Of a stretch of DNA of 64,000 bases, positions 7,222 to 59,506 are shown in pieces (the first letter of the stretch is position 1; the number at the start of each line of letters is the position of its first letter). This DNA is from an uncultured Gemmatimonadales bacterium. GTDB lineage: Bacteria > Gemmatimonadota > Gemmatimonadetes > Gemmatimonadales > GWC2-71-9. Under the pieces are notes generated by a model that saw only the letters and a program-made list of their open reading frames with translations, was not told the origin of the DNA and ran no database searches. The position numbers were made by a program, and so were the translations under genes. The stretch spans positions 1,888,001 to 1,952,000 of the forward strand of contig CAVZZO010000001.1 of the NCBI GenBank assembly GCA_963779755.1, read 5' to 3'.

Positions 7222-7313
7222 AGGGCAAGGCGGCAGGGGCGGCAGGGGCGGCAGGGGCAAGGCATGCCTTGCCCCTGCCGCCCTGCCACCCTGCCGCCCT
7301 CCCGCCTTCCGCC
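7222..7313. repeat. 38-bp perfect palindrome (7246-7283) with REP-like core GGGGCAAGGCATGCCTTGCCCC, inside inverted GGCGGCAG(G) tandem repeats
   Basis: Base-by-base pairing around ggca|tgcc; flanking 8-9 nt units inverted on each side. Confidence 0.9.
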
Positions 7314-18086: not shown

Positions 18087-18139
18087 CAGGGACCGGGAAC
18101 CAGGAACCAGGGATTCCTGATTCCTGGTTCCTTGTCCCT
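18087..18139. repeat. Inverted heptamer repeats (CRGGRAC)x4 / (TTCCTGR)x4
   Basis: cagggac cgggaac caggaac caggga | ttcctga ttcctgg ttccttg tccct. Confidence 0.85.
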
Positions 18140-18213
18140 TGCCAGTGACAGGCGGAATGGCCGACGCCGGATCTCAAACGGTTGACGGGTAATAACTTCC
18201 GCCTAGGCCTCCG

Positions 18214-34598: not shown

Positions 34599-36823
<2,225 letters not shown>

Positions 36824-36992
36824 GGGACCAGGAATCAGGGACCAGGGACCAGGGACTCAGGGACTCAGGGACCAGGGACTCAGGGACTCAGGGACCAGAG
36901 ACTCAGGGACCAGGGACCAGGGACCAGGGAACAGGTAACGGGAACGGGGTGCGACCCAAGGTTCCTGATTCCTGATTCCCGGTTCCTTTTTT
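36824..36992. repeat. Tandem array of ~17 GGGACCA/GGGACTCA units with an inverted TTCCTGA arm and T-tract
   Basis: 7/8-nt units at 36824-36947; ttcctga ttcctga ttcccgg ttcc at 36962-36986, then tttttt. Confidence 0.92.
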
Positions 36993-37053
36993 CCGCTCCG
37001 TTTCGCGCTCGGAGGGTGACACTCCTCCGTCGCCCCTGCGCTATCCTCGCTGC

Positions 37054-37452
37054 ATGCACACCCGTCGTTTCATCCCCACCGAAGAATGGGAAGACGCCCG
37101 GCAGCTCCGGGGGCTCCGCGGCGAGCGGGCTGCCCTGGCCTGGCTTATCGCCTGCGGCTGGGAGGTCGAGGCGCACCGGTTCCGCCTGGGGCGGCACGAT
37201 ATCGACCTCATCATGCGGCGCGGCGGCATCGTCGCCTTCGTCGAGGTCAAGACCCGGCGGGGCCACGCCTGCGGCACTCCCCTCGAGGCCGTGGGTCGCC
37301 GGAAACAGAGCACCATCGGACGTGTCGCGGAGCTCTGGCGGCTGCGCTACGGGAGGCCGGGAGATAGCTACCGGTTCGATGTGGTGGCGGTGGATGAGCT
37401 CGAAGCCGGTCGAATGGAGATTCAGCACCTGGAGGATGCGTGGCGGCTTTAG
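37054..37452 (+). CDS. yraN: YraN family (UPF0102) nuclease-fold protein
   Basis: GLRGERAA, DIDLI, FVEVKTR, PLEAV..RKQ, RFDVVAV, HLEDAW. Confidence 0.9.
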   Translation: MHTRRFIPTEEWEDARQLRGLRGERAALAWLIACGWEVEAHRFRLGRHDIDLIMRRGGIVAFVEVKTRRGHACGTPLEAVGRRKQSTIGRVAELWRLRYGRPGDSYRFDVVAVDELEAGRMEIQHLEDAWRL

Positions 37453-37919
37453 CGAGGGACCAGGGATCGGGAATCGGGAATCAGGGGAACGCACCCAGGA
37501 TTCGGAACTTTCGCGACCTGCTCGTCTGGCAAGCAGCCATTGACCTGGCAGTGGAGACATATCGTATCGCCGCCAACCTGCCAGATTCTGAGCGCTACGG
37601 CCTGCGTGCGCAAATGCAGCGGGCCTCGGTGTCTGTGGCCGCCAATATCGCCGAGGGAAATGGCCGAGCGGCGACCGGCGCCTATATCAACCATCTCGGA
37701 ATCGCGCACGGCTCCCTCATGGAGTTGGAAACCTATCTGGTGCTCGTGGTTCGCCTCAGGTTTCTCGGTTCCGAGGATACAGCCTCCTCCGCTTCCCTTG
37801 CCCGCGAAACAGGCAAGATGCTGCGACGCCTGATCCTGCGCCTGAAGGAACGTGTAGGCCGGACCGCCCAAGAGCCAGGATCAAGGGGAGAGGGCGGACG
37901 CCGTATTCCCGATTCCTGA
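37440..37919 (+). CDS. Four-helix-bundle protein (23S rRNA IVP/bAvd-like); start uncertain
   Basis: FRDLLVWQAA, PDSERYGLRAQMQRASVSVAANIAEG..R, IAHGSLMELETYL family motifs. Confidence 0.9.
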   Translation: MAALARDQGSGIGNQGNAPRIRNFRDLLVWQAAIDLAVETYRIAANLPDSERYGLRAQMQRASVSVAANIAEGNGRAATGAYINHLGIAHGSLMELETYLVLVVRLRFLGSEDTASSASLARETGKMLRRLILRLKERVGRTAQEPGSRGEGGRRIPDS

Positions 37920-37932
37920 TTCCTCGTCCCTC
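37454..37932. mobile_element. Candidate mini-cassette: four-helix-bundle gene bounded by 28-nt inverted heptamer repeats
   Basis: Left arm gagggac cagggat cgggaat cgggaat (37454-37481); reverse complement of right arm (37905-37932) gagggac gaggaat caggaat cgggaat; 25/28 identical. Mobility is inferred. Confidence 0.5.
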
Positions 37933-37961
37933 TTGCTTCGGATTTTGTTCGGCAATAGATT
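37933..37961 (+). promoter_or_regulatory. Putative recA sigma70 promoter with a TTCGG-N6-TTCGG direct repeat
   Basis: TTGCTT-17 nt-TAGATT; ttcggattttgttcgg overlaps the -35 and spacer. Confidence 0.6.
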
Positions 37962-38011
37962 AGTTCCTATCGCAGTGGCGCAAAATCAGTCACCCCAATA
38001 CCGAGGGCCCC

Positions 38012-39064
38012 ATGGCCGCAACCGATGAGTCCCGTCTCGACGCCGAGAAGCGCAAGGCGCTGAACCTCGCCATTTCCCAGATCGAAAAGCAGCTCGGCAA
38101 GGGGTCCATCATGCGGATGGGGTCGGAAACGCCCCGGGTCCGGGTGGCGGCCATTCCCACCGGGGCCATCAACCTCGATGCGGCCATCGGCATCGGCGGG
38201 GTGCCCCGGGGCCGGATCACCGAGATTTACGGCCCGGAAGCCTCCGGAAAGACAACCCTGACCCTGCACCTGGCAGCCAACGTCCAGCGGCTGGGCGGTG
38301 TCGCGGCCTACGTGGACGCGGAGCACGCGCTGGATATCGAATACGCCCGCAAGCTCGGTGTGGACGTGGAGAATCTCCTGGTCTCCCAGCCCGACACCGG
38401 GGAACAGGCGCTGGAGATCGTCGAAATCCTGGTGCGCTCGGGCGCGGTGGATCTGGTGGTGATCGATTCGGTGGCCGCCCTGGTGCCCAAGGCGGAAATC
38501 GAAGGCGAAATGGGCGACAGCCACGTGGGGCTCCAGGCCCGGCTCATGAGCCAGGCGCTGCGGAAGCTGGCGGGCGCCATCAACCGCTCCAACTGCGCCG
38601 TGGTGTTCATCAACCAGCTGCGCGAAAAGATCGGCGTCATGTTCGGCAACCCCGAGACTACCACCGGCGGCAAGGCGCTCAAGTTCTACGCCTCGGTGCG
38701 GCTGGATATCCGGCGGGTGGGTGCGGTGAAGGAGCGGGAAAACGTGATCGGCAACCACGTGCGGGTCAAAGTGGTGAAGAACAAGGTCGCGCCGCCCTTC
38801 AAGCAGGCCGAATTCGACGTCATGTTCGACGAAGGCATCAGCCATACCTCCCTCCTGGTAGATATCGCCGCCGAAGCCAACATCATCCAGAAGTCTGGGG
38901 CCTGGTACTCCTATGGCGACCAGCGCATCGGCCAGGGCCGGGAGAACGCCAAGCTCTTCCTGCGCGACAACGCCGCGCTGCAGGCCGAGGTCGAACAGAA
39001 AGTGCTCGATTATCTCGGCATCCGTCCCACGGTAACCGCCGGAGCGGCGGAGGATGAAGACTGA
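38012..39064 (+). CDS. recA: Recombinase RecA
   Basis: [58 protein letters not shown]. Confidence 0.99.
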
Positions 39065-46154: not shown

Positions 46155-46870
46155 CGCCATTCTGGTTTGCGCTGGCTGCCGCGGCCGGCAACCTGCTCGG
46201 CGCACTCGCCGTGGTCCGGCGTGAGCGGCGCAGCCTGCAGCTCATCGAGTTGTTCGTGGGATTCGGCGCCGGGTTCATGCTGGCGGTGGCCGTGCTCGAG
46301 GTACTGCCCGAGGCGTTCGCCGGCTCCAGCCATGCCGCCTACTACGTGCTGCTGGGCTACCTGGCGGTGCACCTGGCCCAGCACGTCTTCGTGCCGCATT
46401 TCCATTTTGGCGAGGAGACGCATGCGGTCACCCCGCACGCCGGCACCGGCGCGCTGATCGGGTTGTCGCTGCATACCTTCTTCGACGGCGTGGCCATCGC
46501 CAGCGGGTTCCTGGTGTCGCCTTCGCTGGGCATTCTGCTGTTCCTGGCGGTCCTGCTGCACAAGCTGCCCGAAGGCGTGGCCATCGCCAGCGTCATGGTG
46601 GCATCGGGGCAGGGGCGCCGTCGCGCGATTGGCGCCGGCGCGCTGCTGGGGTTCGCCACACTGCTGGGCGTCTTTGCCACCGAGGGTGCCTCGGTCCTCA
46701 CCCGGCACGGTCTGGCGCTGTCGGCCGGCGTCACCATCTATGTGGCCGCCTCGGACCTGGTACCTCAGATCCAGGGGAAACACGGCTGGCGCATGCCGGC
46801 GGCTTTCTTCAGCGGAGCCGCGGCGTTTTTTCTTACCCAGCTGCTGCTGACGGCGGCGGGAGTAGGGTGA
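46151..46870 (+). CDS. ZIP family metal transporter
   Basis: FGAGFML, HFHFGEE loop, HTFFDG, LHKLPEG, YVAASDLVP. Confidence 0.9.
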   Translation: MTPFWFALAAAAGNLLGALAVVRRERRSLQLIELFVGFGAGFMLAVAVLEVLPEAFAGSSHAAYYVLLGYLAVHLAQHVFVPHFHFGEETHAVTPHAGTGALIGLSLHTFFDGVAIASGFLVSPSLGILLFLAVLLHKLPEGVAIASVMVASGQGRRRAIGAGALLGFATLLGVFATEGASVLTRHGLALSAGVTIYVAASDLVPQIQGKHGWRMPAAFFSGAAAFFLTQLLLTAAGVG

Positions 46871-46911
46871 GGGGCGTGGAAGAGCTGAGGACTGACGACT
46901 GAAGCCGGGCA

Positions 46912-47075
46912 CGCCAGGCTCAGTGTCACCCTGAGGGGCGCAGCGGCCGAAGGGGCCGACACCCGGGGAAGCTTCGGCCCCTTCGCTTCGCTCAGGGTGA
47001 CAATCGTATCCCGTCACGGGGCGCCAGGCTCGGTGTCACGCTGAGGGAGCGCAGCGACCGAAGGGGCCGACACCC
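46912..47075. repeat. TGTCA-type palindromic element (79-nt hairpin) plus a partial direct copy
   Basis: tgtcaccctgag...gaaggggccga...tcggccccttcg...ctcagggtgaca at 46924-47002; 46912-46964 repeated at 47022-47075. Confidence 0.85.
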
Positions 47076-47090
47076 TATTACGATTCAGGC

Positions 47091-48455
47091 ATGACCGCTC
47101 CCTCGCTGTTCTCCGCTCCCGAGCCTCTGGCCGCGCGGCTGCGCCCGCGCACCCTGGAGGAGTTCGTGGGGCAGGAGCACCTCCTGGGGCCGGGCCGCGC
47201 GCTGGGCGAGGCCATTCGCCGGGGCGATGTGGGGAGTCTCATCTTCTGGGGGCCGCCCGGCTCCGGCAAAACCACGCTGGCCCGGCTGGTTGCCCGGTAC
47301 ACGGACCGGGAGTTCGTGGCCTTCAGCGCGGTCACCGAGGGGGTGGCCCGGGTGCGGGAGATCATCCGGGAGGCCGAGCAGCGGCGCACGCTGGGGCGGG
47401 GAACCATTCTCTTCTGCGACGAAATCCACCGGTTCAACCGGGCGCAGCAGGATGCGTTTCTGCCGTTCGTGGAGAACGGCGTCATCACGCTGATCGGCGC
47501 CACCACGGAAAACCCCAGCTTCGAGCTGAACGCGGCTCTGCTCTCGCGTTGCCGGGTGTACGTGCTCCAGCCGCTGGGCGCCGGCGAGATCGTCACCCTG
47601 CTGCGCCGTGCCCTGGAGGATGCCGGCGAAGGTCTCGGGGCGTTGCGATTGCAGGCGGACGACGCGGTGCTGGAGTATCTGGCCGTGCAGGCCGATGGCG
47701 ATGCGCGCCGGGCGCTCAGCGTTCTGGAAGCGGCAGCCCAGCAACTCGGCGCCGGCGGCGAACTCACCCGCGATCTCGTGGCCGAGGTGCTGGCCCGGCG
47801 GTTACCGGCGTACGACAAAAGCGGCGAGGGACACTACAACCTCATCTCCGCGCTGCACAAGGCGGTGCGGGGCAGCGACCCGCAGGCGGCGCTCTACTGG
47901 CTGGCGCGGATGATCGACGGTGGCGAGGACCCGCTCTATATCGCCCGCCGGGTGGTACGCATGGCCGCCGAGGACATCGGCTTGGCCGATCCGCAGGCGC
48001 TCGCGCTCACCATCGCGGCGCGGGACACGTTCGAGTTCCTGGGCGCTCCCGAGGGCGAGCTGGCGCTGGCGCAGGCGGTGGTCTATCTGGCCACGGCGCC
48101 GAAATCGAACCGGGTATACGCCGCGTGGGACAAGGCGCTGCGAGCGGCCCGGGACACGCCCGCCGCTCCGGTGCCGCTGCACATCCGGAACGCGCCCACC
48201 GGCCTCATGAAGTCGCTAGGCTACGGCAAGGGCTATCGCTACGCGCACAGCGAGCCGGAAGGGTACGCGGCCCAGGAATACTTTCCGGACGAGGTCCGCG
48301 AGCGTCAGTATTATCAGCCGGGATCGTTCGGCTATGAAAAGAAGATCGGTGAGCGCCTGGAGTGGTGGCACCGGCTGAAAGCGCGGGCCGCGGCTGCGCC
48401 CGACGCCGGCGGCGATGCGGCCGGCGACCGGGACGAGCAGGAGGAAACGGAATGA
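47091..48455 (+). CDS. rarA: Replication-associated recombination protein A
   Basis: [65 protein letters not shown]. Confidence 0.96.
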
Positions 48456-59392: not shown

Positions 59393-59396
59393 GTGC

Positions 59397-59506
59397 ACGG
59401 CAGGACGGCAGGACGGCAGGACGGCAGGACGGCAGGACGGCAGGACGGCAAGACGGCAAGACGGTAGGACGGCAAGACGGCCAGGACTGGCGACTGGTGA
59501 CTGGCA
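59397..59506 (+). repeat. Octamer tandem array (ACGGCARG)x11 followed by heptamer (ACTGGYR)x3
   Basis: acggcagg x6, acggcaag x2, acggtagg, acggcaag, acggccagg; actggcg actggtg actggca. Confidence 0.95.

Follow-up and report, generated by a model that had tools for sequence, protein, structure and literature searches.

A 479-bp segment between yraN and the recA promoter of an uncultured Gemmatimonadales bacterium carries one four-helix-bundle gene between inverted arms of heptamer repeats, and sequence comparison makes it very probable that gene and arms come and go as a unit. Here, we report the layout of this cassette within the window (the whole stretch of 64,000 nucleotides that was analysed), its presence and absence in relatives, the arms around related genes, and a promoter box that cassettes of this family appear to share with DNA-uptake genes. 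Our main reading, drawn from motifs and held at a probability of about 0.45, is that the cassette is transposase-free, would be switched on together with some of the DNA-uptake genes, and would travel by transformation.

The cassette between yraN and recA

All features given here lie on the forward strand. The segment is placed between yraN (UPF0102; 37054 to 37452; PF02021 above cut-off) and the recA promoter (37933 to 37961; conserved before recA in relatives) and contains a single reading frame. Repeat comparison identified its ends as inverted heptamer repeats (identity, 25/28), namely, a left arm of four G-rich heptamers (37454 to 37481) that starts 1 nt past the yraN stop and a C-rich right arm (37905 to 37932) that contains the stop codon of the reading frame (37917 to 37919) and adjoins the recA −35 box. 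Of the three positions that differ, two would form G-U pairs on the plus strand, and in the RNA of 479 nt the arms fold as a single terminal stem (28 bp; z −3.3). A preliminary description had proposed this arrangement (28-nt inverted heptamer ends, a four-helix-bundle gene as sole content, and a stop codon in the right repeat), and each element of it stands.

Downstream, the recA promoter consists of a −35 box (37933 to 37938), a candidate LexA box of the form TTCGG-N6-TTCGG (37937 to 37952), and a −10 box (37956 to 37961), and is followed by recA (38012 to 39064; TIGR02012 above cut-off). By eye, the same direct repeat also precedes lexA in many relatives (loci L324 to L350) and is a candidate Gemmatimonadota LexA box. 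A second near-palindromic site, of the type GTG..C-N7-AGTCAC, lies in the recA leader (37975 to 37993), and in several close relatives, a further copy of it precedes the −35 box in the stretch behind yraN that the cassette occupies in the window. Upstream, the leaderless yraN promoter is made up of a box 50 nt before the ATG (37004 to 37019; box 6.7, total 13.7 bits) and a −10 hexamer (37042 to 37047; consensus match only). It is preceded by an empty hairpin, with a G-rich heptamer array directly after the ftsK stop as its left arm (36822 to 36949) and a C-rich right arm (36960 to 36987; 82% complementary). No Rfam family was matched at gathering level between 36500 and 38300 (one hit was sub-threshold), and a sigma-70 scan of 36800 to 38050 found no promoter.

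The open reading frame (37440 to 37919; 159 aa) was assigned to the IVP/S23p family of four-helix-bundle proteins with TIGR02436 (101 bits; cut-off, 24) and PF05635 (108 bits; cut-off, 33.8), and it matches the solved IVP structure of Xcc0516 (XCC0516; 2GSC; E, 7e-19). The family has a solved structure and no known function (PMC4990558). The IVP domain spans 37512 to 37826, the core is basic (pI 9.7), 19/20 conserved family columns are retained, and the frame runs without stop or frameshift; alignment-free structure prediction returned a helical model at low confidence (pLDDT 50). The earlier link to the family of 23S rRNA intervening-sequence proteins is thus borne out, and membership of Avd, the DGR accessory protein, is rejected: the Avd models NF033474 (26 vs 80 bits) and PF22296 (21 vs 40 bits) fall below cut-off, the neighbours are yraN and recA, and the host genome (97% complete) has no match to the reverse transcriptase PF00078 (RVT_1). 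Neither a transposase nor a reverse transcriptase belongs to the cassette, which the preliminary description had put forward as transposase-less.

From 37454 to the FRDL motif, the frame holds no ATG, GTG, or TTG, as the preliminary description had stated, and only ATC (37473) and ATT (37500) are present; the start codons of relatives map to 37488 and 37491, which read AAC and GCA in the window copy. The only canonical option is therefore GTG 37440, which lies in the last yraN codons, 4 nt behind a GGAGG (together, 37431 to 37442), and which we infer to be the start. On balance, translation of the window copy is slightly favoured. A lesser but quite conceivable possibility, which concerns this copy only and is compatible with the other readings, is that of a silent relic with a decayed start codon. 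The altered codons at 37488 and 37491 point that way, as does the short gap of 27 nt that separates arm and domain (median, 94), a gap of at most 45 nt being found in no other of the 86 armed copies; the 17 extra open codons, moreover, are common by chance. The intact frame, the 19/20 retained columns, and the GGAGG before GTG 37440 argue against decay. Third codon positions are richer in A/T than those of the neighbours, as had been judged by eye (GC3 of 0.70 in the cassette core vs 0.83 in yraN, 0.86 in recA, and 0.89 in recX). Values of 0.702 or less occur in ~0.03% of 3478 genome genes, called with a codon-based gene caller biased against such genes, and in 163/3723 genes after 245 atypical ORFs are added.

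Forty relatives were searched, and 29 of them yielded yraN-recA loci; the relatives recovered included no genome of the same genus. An IVP gene between yraN and recA was absent from all 29. Of 13 metagenome yraN loci, 1 (L163) contains a cassette, 9 reach recA without it, 1 has other genes, and 2 end early. In L163, a heptamer-armed IVP gene with its own ATG and two frame breaks lies right behind yraN, and a 38-nt spacer is kept before the −35 box. The mobile unit that had been proposed for gene plus arms therefore stands as something present or absent as a whole across yraN-recA regions, but precise insertion or excision was not seen: no target-site duplication is visible at the cassette flanks, where no close empty allele defines the ends; the window cassette replaces a spacer of ~20 to 45 nt found in empty relatives; and the right boundary of L163 differs from that of the window copy. 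In four DNA contig sets, whose cover is too low to be informative, no joint skips the cassette; one set, with three short exact pieces, may be the source sample.

A YraN tree groups the host with two empty loci (L162 and L013; support, 0.91) and places L163 elsewhere with weak support. The window and L163 IVPs are 48% identical, and the best protein matches of the window IVP come from other phyla (55%); in a tree limited to Gemmatimonadota IVPs, these two and a third copy form one clade (0.89). This pattern would fit either a single early insertion that was later lost in places or two independent gains. Other material was also seen near yraN. The yraN-recA gap of one relative (L022; genome G007) carries an insert of 556 nt with an open frame of ~148 codons and no arms, which looks like a helix bundle by eye but was rejected as IVP by profile (E, 0.18), and another locus (L171) has, downstream of yraN and instead of recA, a two-gene module that by eye resembles a toxin-antitoxin pair. 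The ftsK-yraN gap is equally changeable: the window has an empty heptamer hairpin there, several relatives have different units, and the gap is occupied by a GxxExxY cassette in L017 (2029 to 2400; genome G024) and by an IVP cassette in L064.

Arms around IVP genes and the repeat landscape

IVP copies were sampled as the best 89 of 114 matches listed in relatives (weakest left out), the 8 copies of the host, and 80 loci from named genomes. Arms were called at a score of at least 14, loci with <150 nt of flanking sequence were excluded from the counts, and kin within the sample are not independent. Of the eight host IVP genes over the Pfam cut-off, seven have matched arms (7-, 8-, or 9-nt units); the eighth has a right 11-mer arm only, with IS-like sequence upstream. 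Just upstream of an IVP gene with no left arm nearby (L392; G000:C3:1257500-1260500), IS3-like and IS30-like sequences were noted by eye. Matched arms flank 86/99 Gemmatimonadota copies, a sample drawn in part from the best 89 of 114 matches listed, vs 4/200 in a mismatched-pair control, in agreement with the expectation that paralogs would carry periodic inverted flanks. The count is 26/61 for IVP copies from other phyla, and inverted arms that score at least 14 occur at 8/350 random host genes. Arms match each other within a locus and differ between loci, and 19/112 left arms are not G-rich, with reversed polarity also found in L064. Among L123 to L161 (mostly Planctomycetota), many IVP homologs are preceded by a heptamer array that has no matching arm behind the gene within the range searched.

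Mapped on the IVP protein tree, the repeat period changes between 7-mer and longer 7 times on 82 labelled tips (at least 18 times in 1000 shuffles). Linkage alone could yield such a match, which is therefore no proof that the protein reads the repeat unit. Copy number ranges from 0 to 11 IVP genes per genome.

A periodicity scan of the host genome gave 370 arrays of 7-nt period, 179 of 8-nt, 168 of 9-nt, and 31 of 11-nt period (748 in total; almost none in shuffled DNA), of which 613 lie mostly outside called genes, and arrays are present in 451/1447 host gaps of 61 to 400 nt. Among the G-rich heptamer arrays (n = 194), an inverted partner lies downstream in 93 cases and upstream in 5. Empty hairpins, which had been suggested as non-coding relatives or scars of the cassette, have the repeat units and polarity of the cassettes. 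As simple deletion scars they are not supported, because their spacers are unique (2/57 share 16 nt) and carry cassette interior or promoter box in 1/65 cases only; an origin by internal deletion of cassettes likewise finds no support. At junctions where relatives have an IVP gene, the host has an array in 10/19 cases vs 31% (451/1447) of comparable gaps, often with a different repeat unit. Array density and IVP count are weakly correlated (rho, 0.37; p, 0.05), and some IVP sites are common across genera (L053 and L056; L081 and L001).

Arms also occur around other genes, with inverted 9-mer arms at GxxExxY genes (G000 loci L040 to L051, and L017) and long inverted repeats at the single DUF559 gene inspected. 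At G000:C3 ~1,489,000 to 1,506,500, incomplete GxxExxY genes are interleaved with RHS-core-like ends (by eye). In the window, further 7-, 8-, and 9-mer arrays or hairpins lie at gene junctions (195 to 220, 2896 to 2990, 7227 to 7310, 18111 to 18141, and 59394 to 59481), and a long palindromic REP-like repeat, which recurs elsewhere in the genome, is found twice behind a stop codon at ~46850 to 47120, a junction that has IVP cassettes in two relatives.

A promoter box common to Gemmatimonadota IVP cassettes and several DNA-uptake genes

Upstream of Gemmatimonadota IVP genes, a motif of the form ~YGCR-n3-WWW-n-GRT starts 49 to 50 nt ahead of the ATG and is followed, 38 to 43 nt past its start, by a −10 box; in most of these cassettes, the two make up a leaderless promoter motif inside the arms. 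The box also precedes yraN in relatives. Since YraN is described as the nuclease partner of ComM in natural transformation (PMC13663708), other genes of the transformation pathway were tested. The box model was trained on the relatives' yraN, comM, and radC starts only (78 sequences), and a start passed with at least 5 bits for the box and at least 2 bits for the −10. Passes in the training set, which are inflated by construction, numbered 25/28 (yraN), 12/25 (comM), and 15/25 (radC). Held-out Gemmatimonadota IVP genes passed in 56/95 cases (shuffled upstreams: mean, 1.2; maximum, 3) and held-out comEA in 10/23, on a background of 29/3478 called host genes. Passes for dprA (1/25), comEC (0/25), and comF (0/25) were few, and a free scan of the 300 nt upstream of these three genes, which may be operon-internal, found no strong site; a competence regulon therefore rests on 4/7 genes. 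ComM and RadC are members of a competence regulon described elsewhere (PMC1635313).

Two simpler accounts of the box were rejected. As a mere marker of leaderless genes it would be widespread among starts with a good leaderless −10, but there it was found in 30/36 IVP genes vs 12/382 genome genes. As an SOS box it fails at lexA (0/26), recA (1/30; total score), and uvrB (1/28). The box resembles the CRP-S sites of the Sxy regulon of gamma-proteobacteria (PMC1635313) in preceding comM, radC, and a ComEA-type gene, in a left half that resembles TGCG, and in a centre near −42; unlike CRP-S, it is not a symmetric CRP site, and dprA, comEC, and comF lack it. The host genome (G000) has one TfoX_N match, a candidate for the activator.

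Within the host, yraN (13.7 bits; among the top 8), comEA (12.9 bits), and comM (12.0 bits) all rank in the top 12 of 3441 genes, and passing scores of 12.5 to 20 bits were obtained for the four own IVP genes for which the ATG served as start, for 3/3 GxxExxY genes, and for 2/2 DUF559 genes scored. Two further own IVP genes fail the rule. The window copy has no box, and its 27 nt between arm and domain are too little to hold one; it sits directly behind yraN, as does the L163 copy, and the window yraN promoter has the box. In other phyla, the box was found before 1/54 IVP genes. For five genomes of other groups (26 upstream regions), the best totals were 2.5 to 8.9 bits, with no motif common by eye to IVP genes and comM, radC, or yraN, and most IVP copies inspected there consist of arm, SD, and start, with no promoter seen. 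Since the promoter link is seen only in Gemmatimonadota, the promoterless build of the window copy may be its clade's own. Taken from these upstream sequences, shared regulation of IVP cassettes with yraN, comM, radC, and comEA is rather probable.

Further genes scored on the box model, or with a box trained on IVP genes, were recorded in the host genome. Three Uma2 nuclease genes (L386 to L388; C3:1433900-1434500, C3:1447900-1448500, and C1:954100-954700 of G000) have an IVP-trained box ~60 to 90 nt before the start. An integrase, a prepilin-like gene, and recJ score ~10, the integrase (L389; G000:C3:405144-406136; 10.1) being of integron type by reading and a phage integrase by Pfam. Of all called genes, a 105-aa gene without Pfam match and with arrays on both sides (L385; G000:C1:398328-398645) reaches the highest box score (18.9) and may represent a further cargo family. 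The literature covered, which did not extend to subscription journals and bioRxiv supplements, holds no paper that links IVP genes to competence or to periodic inverted arms outside rRNA, and the promoter link of IVP cassettes to yraN, comM, radC, and comEA, not found in print, is new.

Candidate mechanism, rival explanations, and known systems

In the main reading, the 479-bp segment (G-rich arm, small cargo gene, and C-rich arm) is one copy of a cassette that is very probably gained and lost at gene junctions. The window copy would be transcribed from the boxed yraN promoter, and any translation would depend on re-initiation at GTG 37440, with expression during the cell's DNA-uptake and recombination programme. 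Transfer between cells would use natural transformation, for which the host would have to be competent; transformation needs no element-encoded enzyme and so offers a route for a transposase-free cassette. At an old site, flanking homology would serve, and at new sites, the hundreds of resident repeat hairpins would act as short anchors, a role with modest support (10/19 vs 31%). Transformation deletes inserts more readily than it adds them, according to one report (PMC13663708), which gives a cassette reason to interfere. The basic, Avd-like protein might bind to the hairpin formed by the arms in single-stranded DNA and help the cassette to be gained or kept; an action of the protein on the cassette's own transmission is a tentative proposal, with the odds against it. 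The promoter that cassettes appear to have in common with yraN, comM, radC, and comEA would indicate when cassette genes should switch on and which process to test.

A broader form of this idea, which we consider doubtful, would make repeat-armed cassettes a parasite class of natural transformation, with interchangeable cargo (Avd-like IVP pentamers or the PD-(D/E)XK nucleases GxxExxY, DUF559, and Uma2) under the host's DNA-uptake promoter and a repeat period particular to each clade. Such cassettes would act on the transformation D-loop for gain or retention, and the hundreds of hairpins with heptamer to 11-mer units would be their anchors and leftovers. If true, it would trace the unexplained heptamer repeats of bacteria, the protein of the 23S rRNA IVS, and a number of multi-copy nuclease families to one origin.

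The arms might instead act in RNA, as an intervening sequence outside rRNA whose arms pair in the transcript, whose stem is cut by RNase III, and whose loop is released; the insert would then be near-harmless at operon junctions and the gene a passenger, here largely untranslated. This is unlikely, although it keeps real weight because the 28-bp terminal stem (z −3.3) has the length of that in the Coxiella burnetii 23S IVS, which is described with a 28-bp stem, heptamer repeats ahead of the S23p ORF, and excision by RNase III with loss of the SD (PMC4990558). The start of the arms right behind a stop codon and the two G-U pairs among three window mismatches also fit. Over 112 armed loci, however, the arm mismatches show no G-U strand bias (sense, 116; antisense, 110), which does not favour the RNA-level action that the preliminary description had allowed for; most Gemmatimonadota copies are transcribed, by their motifs, from a promoter that lies between the arms, and the left arm is therefore outside their own transcript; and arrival at new sites is left unexplained. 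Like the Coxiella element, the window cassette has a protein of the same family in the loop of a ~28-bp terminal stem, heptamers before the ORF, poor or missing start signals, and a similar size (428 to 444 nt in Coxiella vs 479). Unlike it, the cassette lies between protein genes (yraN and recA) and not inside a 23S rRNA gene, both arms are periodic, and most relatives have an internal promoter.

A further account treats IVP as a normal accessory gene of the host, under a DNA-uptake or stress regulon, and the arms as by-products of slippage and template switching in an array-rich genome. The box common to host genes, the 748 arrays that reach 451/1447 of the longer gaps, and the IVP sites common across genera (L053/L056 and L081/L001) agree with it; it is nevertheless improbable, given that arms match within and differ between loci (86/99 vs 4/200), that such arms occur at 8/350 ordinary genes, that the period follows the protein clade, and that copy number varies from 0 to 11 per genome. 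Very improbable is a last account, in which the arms are written and not copied, with an IVP-associated polymerase adding G-rich units to break ends that are joined across a captured spacer or gene. It would suit the strong polarity (93/194 G-rich arrays with a downstream partner vs 5 with an upstream one), the unique spacers of empty hairpins, the clade-bound period, and the partnership of Avd with the DGR reverse transcriptase. The 97% complete genome nonetheless has no RVT_1 match, no partner gene was seen beside cassettes, and reversed polarity exists (L064; 19/112 left arms not G-rich).

Among known systems, the transposase-free cassette resembles ORF-bearing intervening sequences and REP-flanked genes in the way it works and belongs to neither class. 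In RAYT/REP systems (REPtron and REPIN), a gene for an HUH tyrosine transposase is flanked by inverted repeats, and many gene-less repeat pairs lie between genes. Here, by contrast, the cargo matches helix-bundle families only, each arm is a tandem array, and the spacers of the empty pairs are unique. As in a MITE or non-autonomous IS, terminal inverted repeats are present (25/28), but the arms are periodic; many near-identical dispersed copies, another mark of such elements, are missing, with paralogs at 32 to 39% protein identity and unique empty spacers. Avd serves as partner of the DGR reverse transcriptase. The cassette protein is like it in being basic, in its homologous fold, and in weak matches to NF033474 and PF22296, and unlike it in that both scores are sub-cut-off and the host genome has no RT match. 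The fold of Avd is a four-helix bundle homologous to IVP (PMC10053308).

The GGGNATC repeats of Xanthomonas and Nostoc form GGGAATC arrays and convergent pairs (Rehm et al. 2015, PMC4692102). The arrays described here share with them the GGGAATC unit, an intergenic position near stop codons, and frequent convergent pairs, so that the description of those repeats applies; they differ in that the host genome has many unit families of 7, 8, 9, and 11 nt. In that study, the repeats are treated as G-quadruplex formers with their role left open, its main text has 0 mentions of a helix bundle or intervening sequence, and its supplement has a repeat over the start of XCC0516, the gene of structure 2GSC.
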